This document shows positions 6,434-46,824 of a stretch of DNA of 64,000 nucleotides, in pieces. The stretch spans positions 2,944,001-3,008,000 of the forward strand of contig CBDCCK010000002.1 of NCBI GenBank assembly GCA_965214835.1, written 5' to 3'. A model generated the notes under the pieces. It searched no databases, was not told the DNA's origin, and saw only the letters and a list, made by a program, of their open reading frames with translations. The position numbers were made by a program, and so were the translations under genes. The number at the start of each line of letters is the position of its first letter. The first letter of the stretch is position 1. The DNA comes from Nitrosopumilaceae archaeon (GTDB lineage: Archaea; Thermoproteota; Nitrososphaeria; Nitrososphaerales; Nitrosopumilaceae).

Positions 6434-6541
6434 GTGGTAATCCTATGCCGTTCCCGCCAGTTCTGTCACGGCAGGATGTATGTTTTGCTTGCGGCATGTC
6501 ATCGAGTGGTAATCCTATGCCGTTCCCGCCAGTTCTGTCAC
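6434..6541. CRISPR. Single repeat-spacer-repeat unit (36/36/36 bp), CRISPR-like, possibly ectopic
   Basis: GTGGTAATCCTATGCCGTTCCCGCCAGTTCTGTCAC at 6434-6469 and 6506-6541; insert matches reverse complement of 49748-49783 at 34/36. Confidence 0.6.
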
Positions 6542-7624
6542 CCTCTTGATCTTCTTGTCGTACAGGGCAGCATTGCGCGATGAATACGCAGTCTTTGTCG
6601 TCAGCATGTGCCAGATTATCCTGAGCATCTTGTTTGCAACATGCGTTATCGCTATGACGTGGTTGTTGCCGTTCCTTTTGCGGACCCTCTCGTAGAACTC
6701 CCTCATCCTGTCGTCGTGCTGTACGGCGACGTTGGCTATCTGGATCATCAGCCAGTTGATCCTGCGGTTTGCATCCTTTTTCATGTGGCCGTGGTACTCG
6801 CGATCCCCCGACTGGTACACCCGGGGACACATGCCGGCCCAGGACACAAGCTGGTTCGGCGATGGAAACCTGGTTATGTCACCGATCTCTGCTATCAGCA
6901 GCATTGCTGCAAAGGTGTCTATTCCCGTCATGCTCAACAGCAGCTTGGCATCCTCGTTCGATCCTGCCTGTCTTCCTATGTCCTCCCCTGCTTGGTCTAT
7001 CTCCTCTGTGACGTGTACAATCCTCCTAGTGCAGCTTGCCAGTATCCTGTCATCGTTTGGCATGTTCAGCCTGGTATCGGAGATCTTCCGTATGGCCTTC
7101 TTGGAGTACATCGTGGATGCATCTATGGCTATATCGTACTTGTCAAGCCAAGCTGTGCAGCCCGTTTATGACTGCGGTCCTCTCCTGTACCATCCGTATC
7201 CTGTACCTCATCAGCTCCCTGACATCCCTCAGCTCTGCTGATGCCACGTAGCATCGTGGTATCATTCCGGCCCTGAGCGTGTCGGCTATCTTCCTTGCGT
7301 CTATCGGGTCGGTCTTTGCGCTGGTCTCTGATACTATCTTCATCTTGAGGGTGTTTGCAAGCAGTATGGGGATATGCTGATCCTCAAACGCCCTGAACGT
7401 CTTTAGCCACATGTTGCCCGTTGACTCGCATGCGGCCTGGCACTTTTTGTACTCTTTTTTCAGTCGTGCAGCAAGCTTTGATGCCTCCTTGTACGTGTTG
7501 TTATACGAGCCCTCCTCTAGCACGTGTCCCTTGGCGTCGATGACGCACACTGCGCATTTTCTCTTTCCAATGTCTATTCCTATGCTTCTCAATCCTTTTC
7601 TTTCACCTCCTTTTGGATATGGTT

Positions 7625-7765
7625 TGACAGATCAGAAGCTGCATTCATCCATCAGTGCGCGTAGCACAGGAACACAGCAGCTCGGATATCCCCATTCAAC
7701 AGGTAGTGCGCGAAGCACATGCATAACGAGGGGTTGATCCATCACCCTGGCTACGGCGGGGGCGT
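7625..7765 (-). ncRNA. Putative IS110 bridge RNA (two stem/internal-loop/hairpin domains)
   Basis: Minus strand: CCCC-loop-GTGC(TTCGC)GCAC-loop-GGGG then GAGCTGC-loop-GTGC(TACGC)GCAC-loop-GCAGCTT; loop segments match the element junction; ends approximate. Confidence 0.75.
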
Positions 7766-8064
7766 TTTTATCATGTGTTCAACAGGCTACGCGCTGTAAA
7801 AACCTGCAAAAATCTCACCATATTTACGATCTTTTTACTCATCCGTAGATCCATTACGGGGACTTGATCGCCAAATGCAGGGAAAATGACCAAGGCGGTA
7901 CGTGGTGGGCCGATTTGCCCGAGGAGACGCAGGAAGGCATGGAGTGTGAATAGTCCAGCCTCAATAGTTCTGATTGACCCAGTAGCCAGACTCGGCCCGG
8001 ATCGGGGGCTTGCTCGTACTCTTACAGATGCCCTGATGATGCGGGCAGGCATGATGCGTAGTAT

Positions 8065-9111
8065 CTAGCCGAGATAATCGCTCATCTGGCAGATTTTGAT
8101 CTCGCCCCTGCGCAACATGACGCGTATGGACTTTTGCATCTCGCCGACGGTCTGATACAGGCGGCTTGCAGTCGCCTTTTTGACCCCGCGCCACTGCCCC
8201 TCTATCGGGCTCAGCTCCGGCGTGTACGGCGGCAGGAACTTTAGCACCACATCACCATTCCATTCTGCCAGCTGCTCCCCGACCAGTGCGGCCCTGTGAT
8301 ACGATGCGTTGTCGACAAACAGCAGCACCTTGCCGTACTTGCGACGCAGCACCTTGAGAAACCTGATGGACGTGTGCTTGGCCGTTTTGTAAAAGCGGCA
8401 GTCAAGTCCGTTTGCCGACAGGGCACCGATCGAATAGAACCTCTCCTTTGACAGGTTGGACGGCGCAAAGACCGGGCCTTCCCACGGGATACCAGCTGTT
8501 CTTGACGTTCCACCCAAGGATGAACGAGGCCTCGTCCCCTATCATTGCCGTGTGCTCCCTCTTTGAATGGTACCTTACGTGCCACCTAGCTTTTTTTTGA
8601 ACTCTTCTTTCTCGGATTCTGAGGCTGGTTTTGGGTGCTTTGGGCGGGGGGCTTTCTGCATGAAAAGCCCAGGCATGTGCAGTATCTTGCATGCGCTGGA
8701 GACGGCATAGTCTGCCTTGTATTTCTTTTTGATGTGTACCGCAAGCAGCGGTGCGGTCCACACCTCCGACTCGAATCCGCAGCTGCGCGGGCCCGCAACC
8801 AGGTCGGCGCGCACCTGCTTGAGATTCCCTGCGTCCGGCCACATCTTGGTGCCGGGCCTCTTGATGTCGTACCTGCCCTGTATGCCAAGCTGCATGGCCC
8901 ATATCGGCCAGTCACGTATCGTAGAGTACCCCCGGCCGAGCTGCCTGGCTATCTGGCGTATCGAGTCGCCTTTTTTGCGACGCATGTAGGCCATCAGCCT
9001 GGCTGCGGCCTTGGAGTCGGTCTCGTTTTTGTACCTCTCAAAGAGGGACGGGGTCGAGACGTTGGGAAGAAACTTGCCCCCTGTTGGGATCATCGAGTAG
9101 TCTGGTTTCAT
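8065..9111 (-). mobile_element. IS630-family transposase (HTH ORF 8575-9111 plus DDE ORF), A8 slippery site, one further frameshift
   Basis: WTAPLL HTH region, DEAS, VDNASYH, LPPYTPELSPIE; TTCAAAAAAAAG at the ORF junction. Confidence 0.9.
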
Positions 9112-9673
9112 GCGTATTGCTTCACTGTATCGTATCTGGGTATTTTGGTGAAAATTTCCTGTCCTTTTTGTGATTGGTTACTGCACATAGTTACTAATCA
9201 ACCAGATCGTAGGGGGTTGCGCCTCCTCACTAGTCAGACATGAAGGTCACAGCTATGGGAGAATTCATGTCCGATTGATCAGGTGCAGGTGGGCCTCATA
9301 CACCAGATCTAGCCACAATCAGAACCACTGCCAGTGTTTTTGGTCAGCGCACCCCTGATCATGCATGCCACACTGATAGGAACCATCATGCCACCCCGCC
9401 TTTGGCAGTCCCACATTCTGCATCCTCGGGGCCGGCGGTGACGTGTTTGTTCTAGTCTGAGAGTCGTGGTAGGCTGGTTAAAATGCCGCTCGTCTTCACG
9501 CGGCGCCTCCCTGCCCAGTACAACTCGGATCGATCCCGCCACATATGCGGGACTCGCGCATCCTGTCGCCCGCGTCGTCCCCCTGCGTCTCTGACATCGT
9601 GGCAGTCCGTGGGGCCGCCGCGCGGCAAGCTGGGATCAACAGCAATATATCTAGTACGGGGTGGACGACATCC

Positions 9674-11209
9674 ATGAGATGGAGGCTACCGGTTCTCGTC
9701 TTTGCGCTCCTGCTCCTGATAAACCTGTCCGTTAGCCATGGGGCCCCCGACGTGACAGACGGCAAGAGGGCGTTCCTTTACGCGGAGAACCTGGCGCTGA
9801 ACGGAAGGCTGGGGCTCGCGCTGAACCTACCGTCTGCAGAGACCGAGGTCTTCCCATCCCACAGCATAAGGAGCATGGAAGAGTCGCTGCAGATAGTGGC
9901 AGACAGGTCCTACAACATCCTAGAGCCCGAGGGGGCCACCAAGGAGGAGTACATAGAGGAGTTCATGGAGCAAAACAGTGACGAGTTCTACTACCAAGTG
10001 CCGCTGGTTCTGCCCGTACTGGCAGCACCCCTGTATGTGGTAGCCGAGGCTGTCGGCGCGGTGCCGATCGAGTTCGTCCCGCTCTACCTGAACTCGGTCA
10101 TAATCGCCGTCTTTGGGGTGGTACTCCTTGCCATTGGGCGGGAGATGTTCGGCTCGGACAGGATCGGGTTCGTCATGGCCCTTCTGCTTGGCCTTACCAC
10201 GTTTATGTGGCCGTACGTCTCGAGCATGTTTTCCAGGCCGCTTGCCGTCATGCTCCTGTTCCTCGGCCTGTACCTAGTTCTGTACTGCAAGAACAGGCCG
10301 GGCATCCTGCTTCCGGTTCTTGCCGGCACCGCCATCGGATTCTCGTATATAGCGCACCCCAACCTACTCACCCTGGCTCCTGCCGCCGTGGCCTTTGGCG
10401 TGTTCCGGTTCAGGAGGAACAGGAGGCAGATCATCGCCCTCATCTTGGTCTCCATTGTAATGATCGGCTTCATGGCCCTTCTAAACCAGTACAGGTTCGG
10501 CGCCGTCGACGCGTTTGGCTGGCATGTAAAGCCGATACAGCATAATATTGGCAATGTTGTCACCGCCGACATTCGTCTAGGAGGCTTTGTAGACCTGCTG
10601 ATCAGCCCTAGTGACAGCGTGTTCCTATACGTCCCGCTGATCGTGTTGCACCCGCTAGGCCTGTACTACATCTACAGGAAAGACAGGGCCCTAGCGCTAC
10701 TCCTAGTATATGTTACCGTGGTGACGTACATGGCCACAGCCAACGTACTTGCGTGGAACACGCTAGGAAACGGCTGGGGGCCCCACAGGTACCTGCTGCC
10801 TCTGGTTCCCGGAATAGTAGTCTCTGCCGGGGCGGTGGTCGCAAGGCATTCGCACTCGCTAAAGGCGGCGGTGCCGGTGGTAGCCATGGCATGTGTGGGA
10901 TTTTACACAAACCTGCACGGCGCCCTAGTGTTCTTTCTCTGGTACAGCTCGTACCTGACCAGGGAGCTCGGCGTGACCGACATAGTTTCTGCGATACGCA
11001 GACTCGAGCACTCTGTCATCCCCATAATCCAGAGGATCATAGAGGAGGGGTACGTCCACTCACATACGGGATGCCATGTAACGCCCTACTACTATTGCGA
11101 GTACGGGATCTGGGCCGTGGCCGTCCTTGGCGCGCTGATCGCCATTTCCGGGTTCATGATACTGCGTTTGCTCGGGATCCGGACTCTGCGGCCGGTAGTG
11201 AACCGGTAG
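9674..11209 (+). CDS. Multi-pass membrane protein, GT-C/ArnT-PMT-like glycosyltransferase
   Basis: Many TM segments, WGPHRYLLP motif; ATG 9674 preferred over 9545. Confidence 0.7.
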   Translation: MRWRLPVLVFALLLLINLSVSHGAPDVTDGKRAFLYAENLALNGRLGLALNLPSAETEVFPSHSIRSMEESLQIVADRSYNILEPEGATKEEYIEEFMEQNSDEFYYQVPLVLPVLAAPLYVVAEAVGAVPIEFVPLYLNSVIIAVFGVVLLAIGREMFGSDRIGFVMALLLGLTTFMWPYVSSMFSRPLAVMLLFLGLYLVLYCKNRPGILLPVLAGTAIGFSYIAHPNLLTLAPAAVAFGVFRFRRNRRQIIALILVSIVMIGFMALLNQYRFGAVDAFGWHVKPIQHNIGNVVTADIRLGGFVDLLISPSDSVFLYVPLIVLHPLGLYYIYRKDRALALLLVYVTVVTYMATANVLAWNTLGNGWGPHRYLLPLVPGIVVSAGAVVARHSHSLKAAVPVVAMACVGFYTNLHGALVFFLWYSSYLTRELGVTDIVSAIRRLEHSVIPIIQRIIEEGYVHSHTGCHVTPYYYCEYGIWAVAVLGALIAISGFMILRLLGIRTLRPVVNR

Positions 11210-11769
11210 TGATCCCCCTCCGGCGTCCGATCCGAGGTATGTTTCAGCCGGCTGAAAAAAAACAGTCTTCCCAAAAGTTCCCCAAAGCGGCTTCAAACTC
11301 GAAACGGTTCTCAATCGCAGACACTATGCGCCACACCGGCACATCACGGCGCATCACTGACGCGGCCGCGCTGCCGGAAGTTCTGCCACGTGAGCCTGCG
11401 CCCCAGTATCCTCTCTGTCTCAGACACGTCGTCCCGGAGAAAGTCCCGCAGTCGGCGCCTGCCTTGGGGAGGTGGCGGACATGGATGTTATGGGAGTTGT
11501 TGTGTGATTCGATTTATCCTGTATAATTTGCTCATTTTCCAAGTCATTACATCTAGATCACGTCCAATGTGGGGATGGCGTGTGGAAATTTCAAGCATTT
11601 TGGCGAATTACGCAGCATCTATGTTAAAAACACCCGTCGTAGAAACGACGATGTTCCTAGTTTCTTCTGATCCACGCCTACTTGATCGTGGCCCACTTTA
11701 GCTGACGCTGGTTGCACGATGCAGTCGCGCTTGCCTTCTCCCGGTGCGGTCATGTCATATCCTCCCAGA

Positions 11770-11987: not shown

Positions 11988-12215
11988 AACCCCCATGTTA
12001 TGATGCCAATCTTGCGCATCCGGCATTTGTAGATGATCCTGCACACATAAAATTGAGCTTGCCGCGCGTCTTCTCAAAAGTAACCCAAGCCAACGCATTC
12101 TGACCAAGGCAGATCAGTTAGGCACAAGTCTGCATGCAGATATAGCCTGCATTCCTGACAGGTGGATGGGACGTGGCCTCGTACGCTAAAATAGATCTGC
12201 GTCACATCCCAAACA

Positions 12216-12635: not shown

Positions 12636-12759
12636 AGCTTGGATGCGCGCCGGGGCGTGAAAAAATGAAATCGTCGTACATTGTCGTGCATAGCGTCCGC
12701 TGGGTCGTGATTTAAAATGAATCATCGCGCATAGTCTCTATGTAAATGGCTGAACCAGT

Positions 12760-15745
<2,986 letters not shown>

Positions 15746-15897
15746 GGCAAATTCAGCCACATATTACACGACTATGCACGACGATCATCGGGTGCAGTCC
15801 AGGGAGGACTGCCCCCTACATCCTTCATACATCACTTTCATGATGCATTGCATCTGATGGTTTTTTGTGAAGACTTGTGCACCCGGCACAATTTCTA

Positions 15898-17368
<1,471 letters not shown>

Positions 17369-26000: not shown

Positions 26001-29000
26001 GTTATTGTATTGTCATCATGGGTGGCAGACCCGTTGGGCGGGTTTTCGATTGCCGATATCACCGGGGTGTCCGATGTGTCTGGATCCGATATGGAAGGCG
26101 TTATTGTTATGGGTGTGTCCTCTGCGGTGGTTGCCGTCTCGGAAGGCGCCACCGGTGGGTCGTTGGACGGCTCTCCCAAGTTCAGCTCTACTATCTGGAG
26201 GCCGGCATCGCCAAAGGCGGCCACCGCTGCGTAGATGTCCTGCCCTATCATGAAGATGTCCACGCCGCGTGGGCTGTTAAGCTCTAGGGAGCCCATATCC
26301 CCCAGATTCCCAGCGGCGGTGAGATTGGCAGGATCGGTAATGTCTACTAGCTGGATGCCGTTGTCAGAGAGGGATGTAACCACCGCGTAGGTGTTGCTGC
26401 CGAATGTAAAGACATCCACGTTGCGTGGGCTTCCAAGTCGCAAGGCGCCATTATCTCCCAGTCTGCCGGCGGCAGTCGGACTGGCAGGGTTGGAAACATC
26501 CACAATCTGGATGCCGTTGTCTACTTCGGCGACCACTACCGCATAGGTACTCTGTCCGATCGTGATAACGGCCACGTCAAGGGCGCCGCCAAGCCGCAAG
26601 AATCCCCCATCCCCTAGGCTGCCGGCCTCGATGGGATTGACAGGATCGGTGACGTCTACGATCTGGAGGCCGTTGTCAAGCACGGAGGCGACTGCGGCGT
26701 AGGTTCTGCCGTCTATCGTAAAGACGTCTACTCCAGAGGCGCCATCAAGTCGCGTGGAGTTCGTATCTTCTAGGCTGCCGGCGGCAGTCGGACTGGCAGG
26801 ATCGGTGACGTTTACAATCTGGATGCCGTCATAGTAGGAGCTGACTGCGGCGTAGGTGCTGCCGTCTATCGTAAAGACGGCCACGCCGAAGGCGCCGTCA
26901 AGCTTCTTAGAGGGTGTATCTGACACCCGACCTGTGGCCTGCAAACTGGCAGGATCGGTAACGTTTACAATCTGGATGCCGTCATCATTGTGGGAGGCCA
27001 CTACGGCGTAGATGCTGCCGTCTATCGTAAAGACGGCCACGCCGCGTGGGCTAGCAAGTCGCAAGTCGTTATTATCTTCCAGGCTGCCGGCGGCAGTCGG
27101 ACTGGCAGGATCGGTGACGTTGATAATCTGGATGCCATCATCATATTCGGAGGCGACGGCCGCGTAGGTGCTGCCGTCTATCGTAAAGGTGTCCACGCCG
27201 AAGGCGCCGTCAAGCAGCAATTGCTGGCTGTCTCCTATATTCCCGACCGGGGTCAGCGTGAGTGTTGGTGGAGCATCACCCACGACTATGTCAAAGGATT
27301 CAGAGTCGGTGCCGCCCCGGCCGTCGTCTACCGTTATTGTGACCTCGTGGGTCTGCCCGGCATCTGCCTGCACGGGCGTCCAGACGATGCTGCCGTTCGA
27401 GGTATCAAATACGGCAGCTGCCGGCAGCGTGCCGCGCGATATCGAGTACGTGTGCGTGTCGGTCGTGTCGGCGTCGGTTACCGTGGGTGTTATGCTCAGC
27501 TGGACTCCCGGCGTTGCGGTCTGGTCGCCTATTGTTCCTAGGACGGGGGCGCTGTTGGGAGCCAAGCTTGCACCCTCGGCAAGCTTTACTGTCTGGAGGC
27601 CCTCCGTGTCTGTTGCCACCACGGCGTACACGTCCCCGCCGATCTCAAACAGGGCCAGATCCCGTGCATTTTCAAGGGAGAGCGACAGGTCGTCCCCAAT
27701 GGATCCGGCCGCTGCGGGATTGTCGGGGTTGGTTATATCCACAATCTGGAGGCCGTCGTCGCTCTCGGAGGCCACTGCTGCGTAGACGGTCTGGCCCACC
27801 CAGAACATCTCCACGCCGCTGGCCCCGGCAAGCAGCCTGTCGCCGCCATCTACAAGCTTTCCGGCAGGCGACGGATTGTCGGGATCGGTGACGTTTATGA
27901 TCTGGAGGCCGTTTTCAAGATGTGACGCCACTGCCACGTATGCAAAGCCTCCCACCTCGAAGGTGTCCACGGCGCGGATTCCCCTGAGCAGCATGTCAGT
28001 GTTGTCTGCCAGCCGTCCCGTCTCTGCAGGACTGGACGGGTTGCTGACGTCTATGATCTCAAGGCCGTCATCTCCCCACGAGGCCACTACTGCATATGTG
28101 GAGCCGCCCCTCTTGAAGGTGTCCACCGAGGAGGTATCAGCAAGCAGCCTGGAGCCGTTATCTGCCAGCTCCCCTGGTGCCGTCAGACTGCTGGGATCGG
28201 TGACATGTACAAGCTGGAGGCCGCCGTCGTGCTGTGAGGTGACTGCCGCGTAGGTGTTGGTGCCTATCGTAAAGGTGGTCACCGCGTTGGCGCCTTCAAG
28301 CAGCCGGTTGCCGCCGTCTGCCACCCGTCCGACCGAGGCAGGGTTGTCCGGATCGGTGACGTCGATTATCTCGACGCCGTCATCACCATTGGAGGCCACC
28401 ACGGCGTAGGTCTTGCCGCCCGTCTCAAAGGTGTCCACGGCGCGCGCGCCATCAAGCCGCAGGGTGATATCGTCGTCAAGCTGTCCGGCCGCTGCAGGGG
28501 CTGCCGGATCTGTTATGTCCATGATCTGGATGCCGTCCTCGCTGCCGGAGACGGCGACCGCATAGGTGGAGCCGCCTATCTCAAAGGTGTCCACGCCGCG
28601 GGACAGATCAAGCAGCAGACTAGCAGTGTCTGGAATACTCTTGGAGGGAATGGGGCTGTCTGGAGTAGCCGTCGTGATCGGGTTGTCGGCTGCAGATTCT
28701 ATCTGGTTCCCGAACAGATCCGATACAGCGCCTGCTGCGATGTCAAGCTGCGGGGTTGCCATCCGGGCTATGTCGTCCAGCTGGGACTGGGTAAGCGTAA
28801 GGTATATCGTGTCAGAGTCAGGTACAGTATCATCGAATGTCGCCCCAGTCAGGGCCACCTCGTTTGTTTCGCCCGCGTCGCTGACGTACAGTTTTGACAG
28901 GTCGGTCTCCGAGACGTCTATTGTCTCGCTGAAGGTTACAACCACGGCACCGGTGTGCCTGTCCATGGTAGCAGATGCGAACTCGGGTTCTGTATCGTCC

Positions 29001-32000
29001 TCGTCAAGACCCACCACCTGGAGGCCCTCGGTATCGGAGGCCACCACGGCGTAGGTGCCCCTGCCGCTTGTGAACACGGCCAGATCCCGGGCCTTATCAA
29101 GGGAGAGCGACGGGCCGTCCCCCAGGAATCCGGCCGCCGCCGGGTTGTCGGGATCGGCTATATCCACAACCTGGACGCCGTCGTCGCCCTCGGATGCCAC
29201 TGCGGCGTAGACTCCAGTATAGGTCCGGAACACCTCCACCCCACTGGCCCCGGCAAGCCGCAGGTCGCCGCCGTCTGCAAGCTTGCCTGCCGCCGCCGGA
29301 TTGCCGGGATCGGAGACGTCGATTATCTGCAGTCCGTGGTCGAGATGCGATGTGGCCACCGCGTATGTGGAGCCGCCCGTCTCGAAGGTGTCCAAGTCGC
29401 GGATTCCGCGGAGCAGCAGGTCGTTGTCGTCTGCCAGGTTGCCGGCGGCTGCCGGGTTGTCGGGATCGGAGACGTCTATGATCTGGAGGCCGGGCTGGCC
29501 CCATGAGGCCACGACTGCATATGTGGAGCCGCCCGTCTCAAAGACGGCCACGGCGCTGGTGTCGACAAGCAGCCGACTGCTATCGTCTGCCAGATTGCCG
29601 GCGGCTGCCGGACTGGCAGGATTGGTGACGTCTATGATCTGGAGGCCGTCGTCGTGCTCTGAGGTGACTGCGGCGTAGGTGTTGGTGTCTATCGTAAAGG
29701 TGGTCACGCCGTTGGCGCCGTCAAGCAGGCGGGAGCCGTCGTCTTTCACCCGTCCAACCGAGGCAGGGTTGTCCGGATCGCTGACGTCGATTATCTCGAC
29801 GCCGTCATCACCATTGGAGGCCACCACGGCGTAGGTCTTGCCGCCCGTCTCAAAGGTGTCCACGGCGCGCGCGCCCCAGAGCAGCAGCGTGCTGTCATCG
29901 TCCTGCAGGCTTCCGGTGGCTGCAGGAGCTGCAGGATTTGTTACATCCACGATCTGGATACCGTCCACGTCGGAGGAGACGGCCACCGCATATATCGAGC
30001 CGCCTATCTCGAAGGTGTCCACACCGCGGGACTCGGCAAGCAGCAGGTTCGCATCGTCGGGCAGTCTTCCGGAGGGGATCGGGTTGGCCGGGCTGGCCGT
30101 CGTGATCGGGTTGTCGGCTGTAGATTCTATCTGGTTCCCGAACAGATCCGATACAGCGCCTGCTGCGATGTCAAGCTGCGGGGTTGCCATCCGGGCTATG
30201 TCGTCCAGCTGGGACTGGGTAAGCGTAATGGATGTAGTGTCAGAGTCCGGTACCGTGTCATCGAATGCAGCCCCAGTCAGGGCCACCTCGTTTGTTTCGC
30301 CCGCGTCGCTGACGTACAGTTTTGACAGGTCGGTCTCCGAGACGTCTATCGTCTCGTCGAAGGTGATCATCATGGCGCCGGTGCTGCCGTCCAGTGTGGC
30401 CGATGCGAACTCGGGTTCTGTATCGTCCTCGTCAAGACCCACCACCTGGAGGCCCTCCATATGGGAGGCCACCACGGCGTAGGTGCCCTTGCCGCTTGTG
30501 AACACGGCTAGATCCCGCGCATCGTCAAGGGAGAGCGACGGGCCATCCCCTAGGAATCCGGCTGCCGCCGGGTTGTCGGGATCGGTTATGCCCACAACCT
30601 GGACGCCGTCGTCGTCCTCGGATGCCACTGCGGCGTAGACTCCAGTATAGGTCCGGAACACCTCCACCCCGCTGGCCCCCCCAAGCAGCAGGTCGCCGCC
30701 GTCTGCAAGCTTGCCTGCCGCCGCCGGATTGCCGGGATCGGAGACGTCGATTATCTGCAGTCCGTGGTCAAGATGCGATGTGGCCACCGCGTATGTGGAG
30801 CCGCCCGTCTCGAAGGTGTCCAAGTCGCGGATTCCGCGGAGCAGCAGGTCGTTGTCGTCTGCCAGGTTGCCGGCGGCTGCCGGGTTGTCGGGATCGGAGA
30901 CGTCTATGATCTGGAGGCCGGGCTCGCCCCATGAGGCCACGGCTGCATATGTGGAGCCGCCCGTCTCAAAGACGGCCACGGCGCTGGTGTCGACAAGCAG
31001 CCGACTGCTATCGTCTGCCAGATTGCCGGCGGCTGCCGGACTGGCAGGATTGGTGACGTCTATGATCTGGAGGCCGTCGTCGTGCTGGGAGGTGACTGCG
31101 GCGTAGGTGTTGGTGTCTATCGTAAAGGTGGTCACGCCGTTGGCGCCGTCAAGCAAGCGGGAGCCGTCGTCTTTCACCCGTCCAACCGAGGCAGGGTTGT
31201 CCGGATCGCTGACGTCGATTATCTCGACGCCGTCATCACCATTGGAGGCCACCACGGCGTAGGTCTTGCCGCCCGTCTCAAAGGTGTCCACGGCGCGCGC
31301 GCCCCAGAGCAGCAGCGTGTCATCGTCGTCCTGCAGGCTTCCGGCGGCTGCAGGAGCTGCAGGATTTGTTACATCCACGATCTGGATGCCGTCCACGTCG
31401 GAGGAGACGGCCACCGCATATATCGAGCCGCCTATCTCGAAGGTGTCCACGCCACCGGACTCGGCAAGCAGCAGGTTCGCATCGTCGGGCAGGTTTCCGG
31501 AGGGGATCGGGCTGTCCGGAGTGGCCGTCGTGATCGGGTTGTCGGCTGCAGATTTCATCTGGTTCCCGAACAGATCCGATACAGCGCCTGCTGCGATGTC
31601 AAGCTGCGGGGTTGCCATCCGGGCTATGTCATTCAGCTGGGACTGGGTAAGCGTAAGCGATATCGTGTCAGAGTCCGGTACCGTGTCATCGAATGTAGCC
31701 CCAGTCAGGGCCACCTCGTTTGTTTCGCCCGCGTCGCTGACGTACAGTTTTGACAGGTCGGTCTCCGAGACGTCTATTGTCTCGTCGAAGGTGATCATCA
31801 TGGTGTCGGTGTTACCGTCCAATGCGGCCGATGCGAACTCGGGCCCTGTGGTGTCGATATCGCCAAGCTTTACCACCTGGAGGCCCTCTGTGTATGAGCC
31901 CACCACGGCGTGCGGACTCTCGCCGCTTGTGAACACGGTCACGACCCGTGCCTCTGCAAGCGAGAGCTGTGAGCTGTCCCCCAAGGATGTCACGGCTGAC

Positions 32001-33052
32001 GGGTTGCCCGGATCGGTGACATCTATGATCTGGAGTCCGTTGTCCTCTTGGGCTGCCACCGCCGCGTATACGCTCGAGCCAAGCCTGAATATATCCACGC
32101 CGCTGGCCCCGTCAAGCCGCAGGTCGCCTCCGTCTGCCAGCTTGCCGGCAGCCGACGGATTGTCGGGATCAGAGACGTCTATGATCTGGAGTCCGTCCTC
32201 GCGATGCGATGCTACTGCCACGTATGTGGAGCCGCCCGTCTCGAAGGTGGCCACGTCCCGGATTCCGTTGAGCAGCAGGTCGCCGCTGTCTGTCAGACTC
32301 CCGACAACCTCAAAGGTGCTTGCGGAGCTTTCGGGATTGGAGACGTCTATGATCTGGAGTCCCTGGGCCCAGGAGGCCACCACCGCGTATATGGAGCCTC
32401 CCGTCTTGAAGGTGTCCACATCGACGGTGTTGCGGAGATCCGGTGCCAGTAGCTGTCCGAAGGGGATGGGATTGCCGGGATTGCTGAGGCTCACAAGCCG
32501 AAGACCGCCGGTATGCTGGGAGGTGGCCAGCACGTATGGGGTTCCGCCGGCCGAATGAAAAACGGTCACGGAGCTGGCACCGTCTAATTGAATCGAGGGC
32601 GACGTACTGTCTGACAGCCGTGAGACCGAGACAGGGCGGGCAGGATTGGTGACTTCGAATATGTCGATGCCGTCCTCGCCATGTGAGGTGACGACAGCGT
32701 AGATCTTGTTGTTTCTAGTGAACGTATTCACAGAGGTAGCTGCATCAAGCAGCAGGGCGCCGCCGTTGGCGACCTGTCCAACGCCGGTCGGACTGGTCGG
32801 ATCGGCGATATCCACAATCTGGAGGCCGTCCTCGTTGTTGGAGACGGCTGCAGTATAGATCGTGCCGTTTACAGTAAAGACATCTACTCCCCTGATTTGA
32901 CCAAGCAGCAGATCGCTGCTATCTGCCAGACTCCCGACGGCGGTCAGATTCACCGAGGCCTGCTGTGCGTATGCCTCCTGCACGCCACCGGCGGCGGCCA
33001 TGCCAGAGACGGCGGCCGCAATGAACACGAGATACATGGAGGCAGTATGCAC
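23018..33052 (-). CDS. Giant secreted/surface protein (3344 aa): LVIVD-type repeat modules, cadherin/Ig-like domains, type 1 solute-binding-protein-like domain
   Basis: Signal peptide (..QEAYA), many YAVVAS..DGLQIIDVSDP repeats, NSAPVL..D.D and YVDPGAT Ig motifs, GP.RS..CCSTAPSL..DNIFRLAPDD. Confidence 0.92.
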   Translation of the reverse strand: MHTASMYLVFIAAAVSGMAAAGGVQEAYAQQASVNLTAVGSLADSSDLLLGQIRGVDVFTVNGTIYTAAVSNNEDGLQIVDIADPTSPTGVGQVANGGALLLDAATSVNTFTRNNKIYAVVTSHGEDGIDIFEVTNPARPVSVSRLSDSTSPSIQLDGASSVTVFHSAGGTPYVLATSQHTGGLRLVSLSNPGNPIPFGQLLAPDLRNTVDVDTFKTGGSIYAVVASWAQGLQIIDVSNPESSASTFEVVGSLTDSGDLLLNGIRDVATFETGGSTYVAVASHREDGLQIIDVSDPDNPSAAGKLADGGDLRLDGASGVDIFRLGSSVYAAVAAQEDNGLQIIDVTDPGNPSAVTSLGDSSQLSLAEARVVTVFTSGESPHAVVGSYTEGLQVVKLGDIDTTGPEFASAALDGNTDTMMITFDETIDVSETDLSKLYVSDAGETNEVALTGATFDDTVPDSDTISLTLTQSQLNDIARMATPQLDIAAGAVSDLFGNQMKSAADNPITTATPDSPIPSGNLPDDANLLLAESGGVDTFEIGGSIYAVAVSSDVDGIQIVDVTNPAAPAAAGSLQDDDDTLLLWGARAVDTFETGGKTYAVVASNGDDGVEIIDVSDPDNPASVGRVKDDGSRLLDGANGVTTFTIDTNTYAAVTSQHDDGLQIIDVTNPASPAAAGNLADDSSRLLVDTSAVAVFETGGSTYAAVASWGEPGLQIIDVSDPDNPAAAGNLADDNDLLLRGIRDLDTFETGGSTYAVATSHLDHGLQIIDVSDPGNPAAAGKLADGGDLLLGGASGVEVFRTYTGVYAAVASEDDDGVQVVGITDPDNPAAAGFLGDGPSLSLDDARDLAVFTSGKGTYAVVASHMEGLQVVGLDEDDTEPEFASATLDGSTGAMMITFDETIDVSETDLSKLYVSDAGETNEVALTGAAFDDTVPDSDTTSITLTQSQLDDIARMATPQLDIAAGAVSDLFGNQIESTADNPITTASPANPIPSGRLPDDANLLLAESRGVDTFEIGGSIYAVAVSSDVDGIQIVDVTNPAAPAATGSLQDDDSTLLLWGARAVDTFETGGKTYAVVASNGDDGVEIIDVSDPDNPASVGRVKDDGSRLLDGANGVTTFTIDTNTYAAVTSEHDDGLQIIDVTNPASPAAAGNLADDSSRLLVDTSAVAVFETGGSTYAVVASWGQPGLQIIDVSDPDNPAAAGNLADDNDLLLRGIRDLDTFETGGSTYAVATSHLDHGLQIIDVSDPGNPAAAGKLADGGDLRLAGASGVEVFRTYTGVYAAVASEGDDGVQVVDIADPDNPAAAGFLGDGPSLSLDKARDLAVFTSGRGTYAVVASDTEGLQVVGLDEDDTEPEFASATMDRHTGAVVVTFSETIDVSETDLSKLYVSDAGETNEVALTGATFDDTVPDSDTIYLTLTQSQLDDIARMATPQLDIAAGAVSDLFGNQIESAADNPITTATPDSPIPSKSIPDTASLLLDLSRGVDTFEIGGSTYAVAVSGSEDGIQIMDITDPAAPAAAGQLDDDITLRLDGARAVDTFETGGKTYAVVASNGDDGVEIIDVTDPDNPASVGRVADGGNRLLEGANAVTTFTIGTNTYAAVTSQHDGGLQLVHVTDPSSLTAPGELADNGSRLLADTSSVDTFKRGGSTYAVVASWGDDGLEIIDVSNPSSPAETGRLADNTDMLLRGIRAVDTFEVGGFAYVAVASHLENGLQIINVTDPDNPSPAGKLVDGGDRLLAGASGVEMFWVGQTVYAAVASESDDGLQIVDITNPDNPAAAGSIGDDLSLSLENARDLALFEIGGDVYAVVATDTEGLQTVKLAEGASLAPNSAPVLGTIGDQTATPGVQLSITPTVTDADTTDTHTYSISRGTLPAAAVFDTSNGSIVWTPVQADAGQTHEVTITVDDGRGGTDSESFDIVVGDAPPTLTLTPVGNIGDSQQLLLDGAFGVDTFTIDGSTYAAVASEYDDGIQIINVTDPASPTAAGSLEDNNDLRLASPRGVAVFTIDGSIYAVVASHNDDGIQIVNVTDPASLQATGRVSDTPSKKLDGAFGVAVFTIDGSTYAAVSSYYDGIQIVNVTDPASPTAAGSLEDTNSTRLDGASGVDVFTIDGRTYAAVASVLDNGLQIVDVTDPVNPIEAGSLGDGGFLRLGGALDVAVITIGQSTYAVVVAEVDNGIQIVDVSNPASPTAAGRLGDNGALRLGSPRNVDVFTFGSNTYAVVTSLSDNGIQLVDITDPANLTAAGNLGDMGSLELNSPRGVDIFMIGQDIYAAVAAFGDAGLQIVELNLGEPSNDPPVAPSETATTAEDTPITITPSISDPDTSDTPVISAIENPPNGSATHDDNTITYTPDQDYTGTDTFGYTVSDGTNTAQGTITITVTRDNNAPVLATIGDRNATPGAQLSIMPKVTDADPTDTHAYSISRGTLPAAAVFDTSNGSIVWTPVQDDIGQTHDVTITVDDGRGGTDSQTFEIAVTLYAIMLNGTNPWPHELGDPYVDPGATISGGSTVDINASAVDVNVRGDYIVNFMATDPNNNPVTATRIVQVRDTTPPEIMVSGEDPVTIPLGSTYIDAGATSTDNDPNYADAVSVDDTLVDTDRPGTYTVTYTATDDAGNTKIATRTVTVPAEYITMGALIPQTGGLGSHLGEHHTFAANAAVEDLNAYLERNGAVWRADQLVINDTEAADVQTLIRSLDSANITLVSGPVRSSELDAVRNYADSNGMILVSCCSTAPSLAIEGDNIFRLAPDDSQQGSVIAGLLGDEYEKDVMVVVWRGDIWGEGIRNSAVTEFEALGGTADELGSYDPDDPDLDGAFEALAARLETAVSGHVQEAGADRVSVLFIGQEEMSRFVAKAAGHPVLGTVQWMGSDASVLDNALVDDPGVFEFLRDANFQASVFAEDSDSPAYRYLTDIIDDEFGTAPAVYTYGMYDTIWVLGLALEEAGWDAEPGEIRAALPEAASRYVGAIGDIELNAAGDLDWSMYAVWGIDDSGWMRLGIWDDGFKPDSRGGGNDDEWQTAPTFGVSPQTGGQMVSCGYSMDGICRDVLDYHVDYRRESIQTDTKHDFTLRAHSAAGVQQFQIGFGVPGVGSPIGDAEAVLTVELGRDYTADSTYEILDAVYTDPNDVIGEAALGVELVGCMSPADPTRCVELSIEGLLFREQMYHEPFVIYVMDVQRWSAQNYMNDGLLVQGDSMNPVPLDTAGIYKRGQQYEAAVIQLERTDKLADLWADQWGNEWARNSHGTWYRTVPDAFERHQDVPWKVMNRMNSNFATLVQAEQDRAVLVFDASQLIREPGSVIPYEHPAVLPEEVRLERLADSMAAERQRAQEIIDRMMSMTYHVSD

Positions 33053-38327: not shown

Positions 38328-38336
38328 GCTGAGAAG

Positions 38337-42198: not shown

Positions 42199-42391
42199 GT
42201 GAATTTTATACACAACGCATGGTTTATTTACATTTTGATCACCAGTAGATCCCAGATCAACATATTTCTGGAAACAAAACCATTGTTTGCAAAAAATATA
42301 ACAATATGACTGGAAGTGTAAATTATTTGGACGGCCGGATCTGGCCTAGGATGCTGGAAAAAGAGAAAATAGGAAAAGATATCCCCCTAGG

Positions 42392-42988
42392 TTAGAAGCC
42401 TTTTGGCAGGGTACCGCGAGTCTTTTTTGGCTCAGGCGGTGTCGTCTGGGTCTGGGTTTGTGCCGATCCGGCGCCAAAGCTGATATCATATCCGGTGAAT
42501 GCCTTCTCCGGGGGGTGGTATGCCAGCCTTGCCCTCGTTGCAAAGTACTGGTTTGAGGGCTGCGTATAGCCGGTTACCTTGGCCTTTTGCTCGTGCCAGC
42601 TTGCCGTTGCGACCTTTCCTACCGGGGCGGTTCTCCTGACAAAGTAGCGGTTTGGTGCCGGGGCATAGCCGGTGACCTTGGTCCGATAATCATGGAAATC
42701 AGTCATGGCGGCGTTTGCATACGCATGCTCCAAGGATCCTGCCTCGGGCTCTGCAGGCGGGGCCTTCTCTGCTGCGGGCTGCTCAAAGCCCTTTGGCAGG
42801 CTGCCTCTTTCCTTCTTGGAAGCAGGTTCTGCCGGTTTTGTCTCAGCAGGTCTGGCCTGCTCGGCTGGCTTTGCCGGTTTTGGGGCAGGCTTGGTTTCCA
42901 GTTGAGCTGAAAGCTGCGATACCTTTGCTTCCAGTTTGGCAATTTTTGCCTCTAGCTCTTTTTTGGTTGTCCTCTTTGAGGTTGCCAT
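42392..42988 (-). CDS. Shorter paralog of 41116-42198
   Basis: Same AKVTGY..P.N.YF core and RGTLPKGF terminus. Confidence 0.85.
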   Translation of the reverse strand: MATSKRTTKKELEAKIAKLEAKVSQLSAQLETKPAPKPAKPAEQARPAETKPAEPASKKERGSLPKGFEQPAAEKAPPAEPEAGSLEHAYANAAMTDFHDYRTKVTGYAPAPNRYFVRRTAPVGKVATASWHEQKAKVTGYTQPSNQYFATRARLAYHPPEKAFTGYDISFGAGSAQTQTQTTPPEPKKTRGTLPKGF

Positions 42989-43119
42989 GATCATGTGGCG
43001 CCTTGGGGGGTTTATTTACATTTGGTTTGCCTTCGGGCAAGAGCCTGTACTGTGAATCAAAAATCCCCTAGGATCAAATTCATCTGACCGAAACACGTGT
43101 TGATCGCCTCATTTGAGAC

Positions 43120-43290
43120 AACACATAGCGGAGATAAAACCAGAGGACATCAGGCAGGCACACAAGAGTGAGTGGGATCCGCAGGTAAAGGCCAGGCTGG
43201 CCGCAGTAGGCATGGTCTGCATGCAAGGCTGCAAACTTGGGAAAACGGCAAGCTGCCTCGTGCAGCCAGTCATCTGAGCACGCCACTAGG
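43120..43290 (+). pseudogene. IS630-like transposase N-terminal remnant
   Basis: IRQAHKSEWDPQVKARLAAV resembles YKNETDSKAAARLMA of 8575-9111. Confidence 0.45.
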
Positions 43291-43486
43291 TGAAGCACTT
43301 GGGAGCCATCTTCCAATGCTGACAAATACTATGCAGAATACGAGGACGGGTAAGGGCTATTGCGCAGTACGGGTTAGGAAACACCACCTACATCCACAGG
43401 ATAGGATCATGCATCAACCTAGAAAAACCGAGAACAAACGCATGTTCTTTGACATGTTTACAAAAAATGGCAAGCCCGTATACAGT

Positions 43487-43566
43487 AGATTTTATGCGTA
43501 ATCGGTTCAGATCTAGGATCATTACGAACAAATTCATCTCGTTCAGGTAGATTACACATAAAGCCT
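43487..43566. mobile_element. MITE family C (80 bp) with ends of the IS5-family elements
   Basis: AGATTTTATGCGTAATC ... GATTACACATAAAGCCT; second copy at 57545. Confidence 0.85.
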
Positions 43567-43569
43567 ATT

Positions 43570-44720
43570 GTCATGACGTTCTGCGCCCCGGATCTCTCGC
43601 TGAGCAGCACCCTAGCAGTTATCCACTCGTTGAACAGTATCATCTAGTAGTAAAAGCACAGGCATCCTGGCGGCCAGGTCGACGGTCCGGGTCTTGGCCC
43701 TGCACTCCTCCATCCTAGCGTATCCTGTCTCGATTCCCCACCTTGACGAGTACGACTCGATCTTGATTCCGGGCCGGTTCGTTGCAAACCCGATGAACTT
43801 TTTCTCCGGCCTGTCCTCCTTTGATGCATCCATGGGCTTGCCGTCATCCTCGGACTTTTTCCTCTCCGTTATTACAATCGAATACGTGGCAGAAGCCGTG
43901 TTGTTCTCGATTATATTTCTGGATACCCCGGGCCTCTTATCGTCAGCAAACTCGTTGTGTTGCGACCACGTTACCCGTGTTCCTGCACGGCATCAGGAAC
44001 TTGACATTCCTTTTCTGCAGCATGGCAATCACCTCGACTGAGAAGAACTCGCGGCCAGGCAGCAGGAGGCGCACCTTGATGCCGGCCCGCTCAAGCCGGC
44101 CAAGGATCAAACCGGCAGATTCAGGCACGGAATCGAGCCTTTTTACGTACAGCGCGCCCAGTGTCAGGCCCAGCCCGTCGTCGACGCACTGTATGGTGAT
44201 GTACAGCTCGACGTATGTGGTTCCGTCCTTTTTCTTCTGGCGCGACAGGTTCTCGTCATGACTCCTGTCGTAGCGGGCAATCTTGTGCAGGTCTATTGCT
44301 ATTGTCAGCCCCCTCTTTGGAATCCTTTTGGCCATGCCCAGTGTCTTGATCTGCCGCCTCACCTGCGCCTCAAAAGCACCCCTGGACTGCATCGGGACTG
44401 GTCTCCTTGATCTTGTAGGCAAACCACCGGGACGACGGCCCGGCGCGGCCCGTGCGCAGTGCCGCGTTGATGCATCCGCCCACCGATGCGTCCATGAGGG
44501 CGCCGCGTATCATGCCGCGGTTCAGGTCGTCAATTCCGTATACGGCGTTGTGCTTTTCTGACATTCTGACGCAGGAGAACATGTTCCTTCCGCCATCTGC
44601 AACATGTTCATATATGCGCGGGTTGTTCTCAAGATCGCGGTACTGTCTGGATTTTTGTTTTATCACGAAAACCACGGGGCCGCACCCCAATTGATCTGTT
44701 TGCATCTGTCAGTGTTGTCA
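43570..44720 (-). pseudogene. ISH3-family (IS4-like) transposase pseudogene
   Basis: IAIDLHKIARY, REFFS, FATN, YSSRWGIETGY across several frames. Confidence 0.85.
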
Positions 44721-44850
44721 AGATGGTCTAAATTCCTTGGTTTTCTGCCTGACTGGGGTACTTTTCACTTAGCTGGGCACATACATACAGACATATGTTG
44801 TATTGCATTCTATACACTAACTTTTTATTTTTTTATTATGTGGAATTAAC

Positions 44851-45096
44851 ATGTCAATAAACTCTAAACCCCTATCAGAATGCAAGATAGGCGAGGACAT
44901 AACTCCTTATTCTAAACTTGTAGCAAAATTTGATCTTTATGTTGTAGAGTCTGATGGTCAGCTTAGCGGTAGAATGAATATTGATAGAAATAGTAAATAT
45001 CTAACTCATGATGAAATTATCGGTGTTTTAGAATACCAGTTAAAAATACAACGGAAAATAAAAGAAGGGTATGATGCTTATCATAAAAACAAGTGA
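44851..45096 (+). CDS. Hypothetical protein in AT-rich patch (81 aa)
   Basis: Clean ORF with much lower GC than surroundings. Confidence 0.6.
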   Translation: MSINSKPLSECKIGEDITPYSKLVAKFDLYVVESDGQLSGRMNIDRNSKYLTHDEIIGVLEYQLKIQRKIKEGYDAYHKNK

Positions 45097-45370
45097 TGTG
45101 AAGAGGTAATGGCATCAGAACGATTTTTGACTTAGTTTTTTCTCTTTTAATTTTTTATAGAGCCAACATGCTCCTACTATATTTGCAGGAGGCAAAATAA
45201 GGGGTATGTTGGTTAGTTTTGATTAACTGCAATTACTAATAACCAATTAATCAATAATTTTTATTGACAAAAAAGTAGTTAATTTTTTAGATTTTTTCCT
45301 GTTCTGTGTAATCTTGGTGATGTGGGATTTCACCGGGATCAGGAATGCCCGGCAATCTGGTCTTTCAGGC

Positions 45371-46032
45371 TGTTCTGTGTAATCTTAGGCACCTGAGACA
45401 TAGATCTTCTGATTGAAATGATGATGTTCTGGGCACAGTGCACTATGGTGTATCCGGGCCGACGGAGCGTGGGTCAAAATAAACGGCAGGCAGTGCTGCC
45501 TTTTTGCCTCGATGGACGACGATGCCCGGCACTGGCTGGCCTCGGATCTGGCAACAACCAAGTTCCAGCACAATGCCGATTCCCTCTTGGACATGACCAA
45601 GCAGGTAGGAAAGAATCCCGGGAACTTCATCACAGACGGGCTTCCAGCCCATGCCAAGTCCTCAAGGAAGGTATTCGGAAAGGGAACAAACCACGTGAAG
45701 CACATTCACCTAGCAGGCAAGCGTGACCGTGACAATAACAACAAGATGGAGAGGCTCAACGGCGAGATTAGAGACCGTGAGAAGGTGTTCAGGGGCCTCA
45801 AAAAGACAGACACTGCAATTCTTGACGGAATGAGGGCCTACTATAATTTCACAAAAAAGCACGGCGTACTGAACGGCCAGACACCGGCAGAATCGGCCAT
45901 GATAAGCGTGGACGGTACAAACAGGTGGAAGACCATAATCCAGAACGCCAGCTTGGGCAAGGATTCTGCCTAGGCACAAGCTTTCAATTCTGAGAAGATC
46001 CACATTTCAGGTGTCCAAGATTGCACAGAACC
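45371..46032 (+). mobile_element. Internally deleted IS6-family element with both terminal repeats
   Basis: GTTCTGTGTAATCTT ... AAGATTGCACAGAACC; DDE C-terminal ORF 45512-45973. Confidence 0.88.
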
Positions 46033-46076
46033 CAAAACAACCAAGTTTTATAAGCACATACAACAGTGGACTAGTA

Positions 46077-46466
46077 ATGGATGACTTTGAGAGGGACTAT
46101 CCCGGATTTGACTGGAGGAACACTCCCGCATACAAGCATCCGGGCGGAAAGGACTGTCCCTGTCCAAAGCACGAGTACATCAGGGAGCAGATCAACTTTA
46201 CAAGGACGGTAAACGAGTCGAGCCGGGGAGGGGGCGAGCCTGCCAAGGTAACCCTCAAGTTTTGTCCGGATCACTACAAGGTCTACATGGAGGAGGTAAT
46301 TCCCGCAATGCCGTTAAAGTACAAGATCCTTACAAAAATCGCGCTAAAGATCGGGGCCATACAGATCGAGCACCTCAACCATATGCAGTCAGACATGTGT
46401 TTTTACTGCAAGTTCGGCTCTGGCGGGCACGGCAAGAAGACCGAGATTCCGCCAATCAACCCCTAG
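46077..46466 (+). CDS. Conserved hypothetical Cys/His-containing protein
   Basis: CPCPKH, FCPDH, CFYC; ATG at 46077 downstream of TTTATAA. Confidence 0.8.
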   Translation: MDDFERDYPGFDWRNTPAYKHPGGKDCPCPKHEYIREQINFTRTVNESSRGGGEPAKVTLKFCPDHYKVYMEEVIPAMPLKYKILTKIALKIGAIQIEHLNHMQSDMCFYCKFGSGGHGKKTEIPPINP

Positions 46467-46693
46467 GCTGGACCGACCAATACCTTGGGCCTGTTGGGAG
46501 TATCATGATGGCACTTTTTTCCGCACAGCGGACATGTTTTCCGATCCAGGAGAATGCACTGGCAGATGTGGGACTTTAGATACGCCTCGGCCGATTTCGT
46601 ATGCTCGCCGGTGCCGTTGCAAAACGGACACTGCGTGCCCAGCAGCTCGATTGTACCAAGTCCTCTGCAGACCGAACATTTCTTCCCACCCAC
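46463..46693 (-). CDS. Small DnaJ-type zinc-finger protein
   Basis: CSVCRGLG and CPFCNGTG (CxxCxGxG) plus HICQC..CPLC. Confidence 0.8.
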   Translation of the reverse strand: MGGKKCSVCRGLGTIELLGTQCPFCNGTGEHTKSAEAYLKSHICQCILLDRKTCPLCGKKCHHDTPNRPKVLVGPA

Positions 46694-46712
46694 ACAAACA
46701 CCCGGTACCCGG

Positions 46713-46824
46713 GTGGTTAAAACCCCTGTGCTAGGGTTTTTTTGTAACTTCCTGAGCGCGAGCATAACCGTGACATTACTGCTGACCCGTGGTTAAAACC
46801 CCTGTGCTAGGGTTTTTTTGTAAC
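46713..46824. CRISPR. Single repeat-spacer-repeat unit (36/40/36 bp), CRISPR-like
   Basis: GTGGTTAAAACCCCTGTGCTAGGGTTTTTTTGTAAC at 46713-46748 and 46789-46824; internal AAAACCC/GGGTTTT palindrome. Confidence 0.6.

Follow-up and report, generated by a model that had tools for sequence, protein, structure and literature searches.

Scattered 36-bp repeat pairs in a Nitrosopumilaceae genome as probable footprints of off-target spacer integration by its type I-G CRISPR-Cas adaptation module

Two repeat units in the window

The DNA analysed here, called the window throughout, is a stretch of 64,000 nucleotides from a Nitrosopumilaceae archaeon (contig CBDCCK010000002.1 of GenBank assembly GCA_965214835.1). 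It corresponds to C2:2944001-3008000, where C2 denotes the larger contig of this two-contig, 3.22-Mb genome with 52.6% G+C. At two places the window carries a 36-mer twice, with a short segment in between, and an earlier note, made from the letters of the window, had explained both pairs by a CRISPR integrase acting away from any array. We refer to the pairs as unit 1 and unit 2, to their 36-mers as pseudo-repeats, and to the enclosed segment as the spacer or insert. The features concerned are the following (window coordinates):

6434..6469, minus strand: unit 1 pseudo-repeat copy distal to the IS110 transposase gene; exact 36-mer, single in 10 other copies of the element
6470..6505, minus strand: unit 1 inserted spacer, 36 bp; missing from 10 other copies of the element, source in an IS66-family element
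6506..6541, minus strand: unit 1 pseudo-repeat copy 2; contains the stop codon of the IS110-family transposase open reading frame (ORF) 6515-7111 (minus)
6515..7592, minus strand: IS110-family transposase, two ORFs, host of unit 1; DEDD_Tnp_IS110 at 7143-7592, Transposase_20 at 6515-7111
46713..46748, no strand assigned: unit 2 pseudo-repeat copy 1; hairpin resembling a terminator, then a T-run; 36-mer nowhere else in the genome
46749..46788, no strand assigned: unit 2 inserted spacer, 40 bp; no source match in the genome, phage records or plasmids
46789..46824, no strand assigned: unit 2 pseudo-repeat copy 2; exact 36-mer, its start covered by a 100-nt contig from public runs
49748..49783, minus strand: diverged copy (34/36, 94.4% identity) of the unit 1 spacer source; C2:2993783-2993748

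As the note had read them, both pairs are exact over 36 bp (0 mismatches in each), and none of 100 shuffles contained two or more matches to either 36-mer. The agreement claimed for the ends of the two repeats (7 of the first 9 and 6 of the last 7 bases) was found again on reading the strings, and so was the lack of relation between their middles. Each pair is a single repeat-spacer-repeat unit and not an array, since the two units have no common repeat, no leader and one spacer each. The remark that no cas gene lies nearby holds for the 64-kb window; genome-wide it does not, because a full type I-G locus is located about 460 kb away. An Rfam search of the window returned rRNA only, with no match in the IS110 region or in either unit.

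Uninterrupted copies of the unit 1 site

The two ORFs of the element that hosts unit 1 matched their Pfam families with E-values of 1e-29 and 2e-26. When up to 6 substitutions were allowed, the unit 1 36-mer was found at 12 places in C2, namely the window pair and 10 single copies. These single copies showed 0-2 mismatches and lay within the same conserved flanks as the window copy; in one of them (C2:2464328) the flank diverged about 24 nt downstream. Nine sister copies were 95-99.5% identical over 196 bp spanning the site and contained no insert. Since the sister copies carry the 36-mer once, the window copy has gained 72 bp, made up of a 36-bp insert and a 36-bp target duplication. This structure is the product expected of a staggered cut, insertion and fill-in. 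Formally, a target-insert-target arrangement also equals 1.5 tandem copies, and such pairs could be ascribed to partial tandem duplication of a 72-76-bp unit by replication slippage or unequal recombination. For unit 1 this explanation is contradicted, because the middle segment is absent from the uninterrupted sister copies, which leaves nothing to duplicate.

The insert of unit 1 recurs in an IS66-family element: 6 further places in the genome match it 36/36, and 8 more match it with 1-4 mismatches. At the source site that was inspected the flank was GAA, that is, TTC on the opposite strand. The pseudo-repeat of this unit showed no fold above shuffles. Apart from the unit itself, about 230 bp located 3' of the transposase (window 6200-6433) are conserved in all copies of the host element; this segment, which has a TGGG run and no Rfam match, could be the non-coding end of the IS110 element.

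The pseudo-repeat of unit 2 was predicted to fold with -9.2 kcal/mol on the minus strand (z -2.2). A 100-nt contig over 46719-46818, which runs from the end of copy 1 across the spacer into the start of copy 2, was present in 4/4 public runs from 2 studies, one of these runs being possibly the source of this assembly. Its presence in all four indicates that unit 2 is not an assembly artefact. No uninterrupted unit 2 joint was reported in these runs, whose contigs, built from 31-letter words, cannot separate the two alleles. The unit 2 spacer had no match in the genome or in plasmids, and in phage records it found only chance matches (E 0.6). Neither a paralogue nor an alignable orthologue of the uninterrupted site was found; the closest genomes were at most 80% identical, and their similarity stopped just before the unit.

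Stray units across the genome

To the two examples on which the earlier note rested, the whole genome adds many more. All exact direct-repeat pairs with a start-to-start distance of up to 300 bp (seed 16) were collected with the native arrays excluded, giving 826 non-overlapping pairs. In the pairs with a spacer of 33-40 bp, the repeat length (L) was 36 in 16 cases, 37 in 11, 38 in 3 and 39 in 2, with 1-3 pairs at each length from 30 to 35 and 0 at 40-41. The periods of pairs with L 30-45 peaked at 72 (n=19), 73 (n=10) and 75 (n=9). A filter for isolated units (L 33-39, spacer 30-42, period 66-78) yielded 41 units, or 40 once one duplicated host element was collapsed, a count that depends on these filters. 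Thus the many events that the note had predicted were found as 40 unique units with the same geometry. Outside the filter lies one unit shared by four copies of a single element (L=42, spacer 37 bp), and a mismatch-tolerant scan added 7-9 more, diverged candidates with periods of 69-75. The scarcity of diverged candidates suggests that most events are recent, or that older ones have been lost.

The sharp length peak at 36 bp that the note had named as a check is present, and it fits an exact duplication of that length: the 34 units with L of at least 36 were distributed as 17/11/3/3 at 36/37/38/39, compared with 19.1/9.6/3.6/1.2 expected for an exact 36-bp duplication with chance extension. 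Insert lengths in the 40 units were 30 bp (n=1), 33 (n=2), 35 (n=2), 36 (n=15), 37 (n=9), 38 (n=3), 39 (n=6) and 40 (n=2). No stray unit had a second spacer, the clusters of several pairs being the two native arrays or ordinary tandem and palindromic repeats. For 18/40 events, the majority of them in IS or multi-copy families, an uninterrupted paralogue was found, in 9 cases with at least 90% identity. Duplicated host elements aside, the 40 inserts all differ from one another, unlike a transposon or a miniature inverted-repeat transposable element, which would be one element with defined ends.

Replication slippage would give no peak at exactly 36 bp matching the native repeat, and the middle segments recur elsewhere in the genome beside TTC or TTG; although three candidates (C2:546457, C2:2212075 and C2:1727174) do lie in tandem-repeat contexts, we regard tandem duplication as a highly improbable origin of the pairs. 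For the motif and source analyses described below, C2:2212075 and C2:1736693 were left out, so that 38 units were retained.

The native type I-G locus

The genome contained one match to the Cas1 family, a 566-aa Cas4g/Cas1g fusion (754.8 bits, the cut-off being 560; the alignment covers model positions 2-546 of 546). After cas4/1 come Cas2, a leader of about 170 bp and the main array, followed by an IS630-family transposase and by cas3g, cas8g2, csb1/cas7g and csb2. Cas8g2 scored 100.8 bits, below its cut-off of 125, and the other type I-G proteins scored above theirs. The locus is complete, and its adaptation module is intact by sequence. The main array (C2:2482178-2492954) has 148 identical repeats of 36 bp, and its spacers measure 35 bp (n=7), 36 (n=45), 37 (n=54), 38 (n=18), 39 (n=16), 40 (n=4) and 41 (n=1), with outliers of 26 and 51 bp. 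A second array (C2:135821-136367) comprises eight repeats of a variant sequence and a similar leader; the four ORFs scanned beside it matched no CRISPR family. The stray duplication therefore has the length of the native repeat (36 bp), and the stray inserts (30-40 bp, mode 36) cover the native 35-41 bp range, whose modes are 37 and 36.

We also considered another mobile element or integrase, outside type I-G, that would insert short DNA and duplicate 36 bp of the target site. In favour of such an agent are the many IS elements of the genome and the assignment of the catalyst to Cas4/1-Cas2 from sequence. However, the inserts share no sequence and range from 30 to 40 bp, so that they are not copies of one element; the Cas1-family match is the only one in the genome; and duplication length, insert length and the flanking motif of the inserts all agree with type I-G. 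Casposase duplications, of about 14-15 bp, count against this alternative as well, and we consider it very unlikely.

The ribosomal-protein operon breaks off after rpl6, and cas4/1 lies some 620 bp further downstream in the same orientation, with the rest of the type I-G locus; L32e, which would be expected to come next in the operon, is found at a distance of 2.16 Mb. Over-expression of cas4/1 by read-through from the ribosomal operon was suspected at first; the gap between rpl6 and cas4/1 (C2:2479394-2480012) contains a small ORF, T5 runs and a tRNA-Asn gene, so that read-through is unsupported and is retained as a weak idea only. The CRISPR-Cas locus may be part of an island integrated at tRNA-Asn. 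As a separate observation, spacer 41 of the main native array has a match of 36/37 bases on the second contig, which is 13 kb long (C1:6366-6401), inside a 1270-aa glycosyltransferase ORF, and the match is preceded by TT, then C at the mismatched first spacer position. This spacer may be self-targeting, or contig C1 may represent a mobile or variable island.

Among the 31 genomes searched, Cas4g/Cas1g scored above the curated cut-off in 3, namely this genome and two congeners. Both congeners have homologous 36-bp repeats, and neither shows the rpl6/tRNA-Asn context upstream of cas4/1.

Insert sources and flanking motif

Matches within the same genome (28-38 nt, exact or with 1-2 mismatches) were obtained for 11 of the 38 retained inserts, compared with 2 of 154 native spacers (Fisher p 3e-7). 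Directly beside the protospacer, TTC (5) or TTG (2) was present at 7 of these 11 sources, where the chance of TTN on either side is 0.11 (p 4e-5). This fits the published protospacer adjacent motif (PAM) of type I-G, TTN: according to the available part of the work on Geobacter type I-U (now I-G), Cas4/1-Cas2 uses an upstream TTN PAM, and 36-bp spacers predominate (PMC6547450). The earlier note had named inserts from mobile elements with a common PAM as a sign to look for; the PAM is there at 7/11 sources and IS elements are among these sources, but what could be mapped belongs to the genome itself (IS elements and the region described next) and includes no identified viruses.

Three of the 11 sources fell within 4.3 kb at C2:902-906 kb (region C2:900127-906409), next to orc1/cdc6 and the gene for the DNA polymerase D small subunit; roughly estimated, such clustering would arise by chance with a probability of 9e-4. 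These two genes form the usual neighbourhood of an archaeal replication origin, and the stretch may be a hot spot of spacer uptake at the origin. Mean G+C was 47.9% in native spacers and 51.6% in the unmapped stray inserts, with 52.6% for the genome. The stray units are probably not made into CRISPR RNA (crRNA). Because of this lack of processing, self-derived inserts would be harmless in them, whereas in the native array autoimmunity would remove such inserts; the stray units would then represent an unfiltered sample of naive uptake.

Target-site preference

Both ends of the 16 retained units with L=36 were compared without choosing an orientation (n=32 half-sites), negative positions lying outside the duplicated segment. 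G was present at +1 in 18, C at +5 in 19, A at -3 in 16 and C at -4 in 16, and T was never found at -2 (binomial p from 8e-5 to 4e-3). A sampler that chose orientation and offset in 32 units reached a log-likelihood ratio of 112.1, compared with 72.2 +/- 6.5 (maximum 85.9, 25 replicates) for random genomic sites. In the resulting consensus, 25 of the 32 units have C at -4, 16 have A at -3 and 29 have G or C at -2; past the cut, 22 have G at +1 and 18 have C at +5, and positions +6 to +10 are rich in A. It can be written as C-A-S-N/G-Y-N-N-C-A-R-A...A-C, the slash marking the cut, and is a weak motif whose orientation was partly chosen by the sampler, with random sites as the control. At the far end, AC was present in 8/32 units against 2.0 expected (p 6e-4), both window units included, and GY..CA occurred at one end in 5/32 units against 0.26 expected.

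The strongest signal of the site, the C at -4, lies outside the duplicated segment and is shared by the two native leaders. Their last four bases are CGGG and CAGT, so that C(-4) and G(-2) are common to both, and C(+5) is found in the native repeat. The first four bases of the native spacers showed no matching bias, which, together with the leader matches, indicates that the flank signal is leader-like. We also considered a resemblance of the whole pseudo-repeat to the native repeat and rejected it: mean identity was 27-30% against 25% for random sites, and few positions stood out (C-4, G-2 and C+5; in the other orientation T30, T31, G32 and C36). With regard to the note, a terminal consensus does exist and its GTKACARAA is a good instance, although the general motif is weaker and, of TWACCAC, only the final AC is general. 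Its expectation of a native repeat with similar ends was borne out in length (36 bp), whereas the ends are alike only at C+5 and the terminal C. An integrase that reads the repeat ends alone, as it proposed, does not agree with the position of the strongest signal.

The repeat-spacer-repeat architecture and the hairpin in the unit 2 pseudo-repeat raise a further alternative, namely that the units are functional dispersed mini-arrays, transcribed and processed for immunity or regulation, and that they reflect purposeful leader-independent recording. In the available portions of two reports, it has been suggested that new arrays could be seeded by off-target units (PMC6698737; bioRxiv 10.1101/148544). 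Nevertheless, the pseudo-repeats are unrelated to one another and, at the near-random identity given above, to the native repeat; that of unit 1 does not fold beyond shuffles, stray units with a second spacer are lacking, and many units lie inside ORFs. Moreover, self-derived inserts with a PAM would be autoimmune if expressed as crRNA. We therefore give functional mini-arrays very little credence.

Genes hit and genomic distribution

On one strand or the other, 36/40 units lie wholly within an open frame, which has at least 130 codons for 21 units. A Pfam scan of ten of the longest frames with units gave matches for 7 (a family-2 glycosyltransferase, a PMT/laminin-G protein, a sulfotransferase, an NAD-dependent epimerase, an HtrA-like protease and two transposase-type proteins), and 3 had no family. 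Periods that are a multiple of three were observed in 24/40 stray units versus 62/147 in the native array (p 0.034). This mild in-frame excess fits selection against frameshifts; it is modest and confounded with where insertions are tolerated. When the unit was removed in silico, the frame lengthened from 220 to 390 codons (C2:717492), from 134 to 294 (C2:1652870) and from 228 to 635 (C2:558201), which indicates that some genes were broken.

The in-frame unit in the gene of the HtrA-like protease was considered as a clean orthologue case and was rejected, because 5 relatives lack the whole segment, target included, in a variable linker; the comparison is consistent with insertion without providing a clean uninterrupted site. 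As a side observation, a candidate unit in one congener (G003:C1:421176-421290) is located just upstream of an HtrA-like protease gene, and the orthologous gene here is the one with the in-frame unit (C2:3127496).

Along the genome, eight bins of 400 kb contained 1, 4, 3, 0, 9, 9, 6 and 10 units, and 11/40 units were less than 150 kb from cas1 (p 8e-4). This closeness could reflect action in cis or an insertion-tolerant region, and the effect is modest and confounded.

Proposed mechanism

In our proposal, the type I-G Cas4/Cas1 fusion and Cas2 of this genome have integrated spacers off target, and each pair is what a single complete event of this kind left behind; to this reading we assign a probability of about 0.88. 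It is carried by the geometry of the units, their uninterrupted paralogues, the PAM-flanked self-derived inserts, the site consensus and an adaptation module that appears intact. In this process, the complex would capture a prespacer of about 36 bp, preferentially beside a TTN PAM, and its two 3' ends would be joined to opposite strands exactly 36 bp apart, which is the native repeat length. Repair of the gaps would then duplicate the 36-bp target and give target-insert-target. The site would be loose and non-random, with one cut made after C-A-S-N and before G-Y-N-N-C-A-R-A, and the other set by a 36-bp ruler, often after A-C. According to the available part of PMC10504553, integration in type I-G starts with the non-PAM end at the leader side, whereas the PAM end, trimmed by Cas4, is joined at the spacer side. 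The consensus half-site would play the leader-side role here, and the order of the two joining steps is one that we infer; the copy at 6434-6469 would be the leader-distal one if the PAM-based orientation holds. The idea of the earlier note, a CRISPR integrase that acts off-array as a mutational process, is supported by the length peak, the site consensus and the PAM-flanked inserts. With about 40 fixed events, the integrase would be a mutator as well.

Several observations weigh against off-target integration by this module, or narrow it. Cas4/1-Cas2 is a presumed catalyst, assigned from the presence and predicted intactness of its genes. Doubt attaches to three of the 40 units, namely C2:546457, whose 66-bp period falls in a tandem context, C2:2212075, which is located in a collagen-like repeat, and C2:1736693, a member of a paralogous repeat family. 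No source was found for 27/38 inserts, and the PAM-based and motif-based orientations agreed in 5 of the 7 units compared, which is not significant. Unit 2 is assigned by geometry and motif only, as neither its uninterrupted allele nor its spacer source was found. Finally, in 400 kb sampled from each congener we observed 0 units in one and 1 atypical candidate (L 41, period 74) in the other, where the chance of zero units in 400 kb at the mean density of this genome is 0.007. Since the congeners have the system and few units, carrying it is not sufficient, and the unit load is special to this genome.

Implications

If the proposed integration is correct, the type I-G integrase adds 22-25 amino acids in frame to some proteins and breaks other genes. 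The stray units would also hold a record of naive uptake, about 30% of it own DNA with a hot spot beside orc1/cdc6, unfiltered by autoimmunity, and would be raw material for new arrays. As far as the accessible parts of the literature go, the natural occurrence and cost of off-target integration have hitherto rested on circumstantial cases. About 40 natural events, many with surviving uninterrupted sites, would provide an in vivo read-out of the target preference of Cas4/1-Cas2 and of its 36-bp ruler, and the genes interrupted and in-frame insertions retained would measure the mutational burden of the adaptation module. They would show which DNA the machinery samples where autoimmunity cannot remove the result, and offer a setting for the birth of new arrays. 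They also suggest that some two-repeat 'arrays' reported by CRISPR finders may be real integration footprints that deserve to be counted, and not only false positives.

Other repeats and genes

Besides the features described above, the window contains archaeal 23S and 16S rRNA genes on the minus strand (12751-17368). A 34-bp unit is repeated seven times head-to-tail at 51440-51677 with 100% identity. Dozens of diverged 156-bp (52-codon) repeats form several blocks at 26216-32393; similar blocks are present at C2:440-450 kb and 2837-2842 kb, which suggests large repetitive surface-type proteins. At 56544-56832, a 100-nt direct repeat (97% identity, 138 bp spacing) is interleaved with a 29-nt repeat (151 bp spacing). 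Elsewhere in the genome, more than 20 irregularly spaced copies of a palindrome-containing 24-nt motif (AAAATGTGGCAA(T)ATTGCCACATT) are found at C2:34440-35700, which looks like a protein-binding array and not CRISPR.

Comparison with known systems

The process belongs to the known non-canonical or off-target type of spacer integration, with which it shares the repeat-length duplication, the spacer-length insert, the uninterrupted site and the PAM. What is new is the natural setting, the number of events, the Cas4/1-fusion subtype, the insertions in genes, and the self-derived character of the stray inserts compared with the native array. Our literature search, which left most subscription journals outside so that an earlier description is possible, found no published wild genome with many such units. 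That this is the first wild genome to combine dozens of fixed off-target integrations, a type I-G mutator, an unfiltered uptake record and raw material for arrays is a tentative claim, to which we give slightly less than an even chance.

Mini-CRISPR arrays and solitary repeat units borne by viruses and plasmids have 1-2 repeats and a single spacer, lie away from cas genes and carry the repeat of the host system itself. The stray units resemble them in having few repeats, one spacer and a location far from cas; unlike in those arrays, every stray pseudo-repeat is a different piece of duplicated local DNA.

Off-target spacer integration giving rise to 'neo-CRISPR' loci was reportedly described by Nivala, Shipman and Church in 2018 for the type I-E system of E. 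coli with overproduced Cas1-Cas2. The comparisons that follow refer to the available parts of the respective works. As in the E. coli case, spacers are found outside the array, a target of repeat length is duplicated, and the sites partly resemble the leader-repeat junction. In contrast to it, about 40 events are fixed in a wild archaeal genome with no known overproduction, and the system is a type I-G Cas4/Cas1 fusion with a 36-bp ruler and TTN-selected inserts. The natural evidence in that study, concerning two other species, was termed 'circumstantial' (bioRxiv 10.1101/148544).

Purified Cas1-Cas2 of Pyrococcus furiosus integrates at non-CRISPR plasmid sites, with G and then C preferred, one repeat length apart (PMC6698737). 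The units described here are similar in their paired cuts one repeat length apart, in the G (then C) at the joints, and in weak repeat- or leader-like bases that include a C few bases into the leader. Unlike those test-tube plasmid products (30-bp repeat), they are chromosomal and heritable, are based on 36 bp, and occur inside genes too. In subtype, there is a likeness to the type I-U/I-G systems of Geobacter sulfurreducens and Methanosarcina barkeri, which combine the Cas4/Cas1 fusion with a TTN PAM and a predominance of 36-bp spacers (PMC6547450, PMC10504553); whereas that work used a cloned leader-repeat, the units reported here are off-target and chromosomal.

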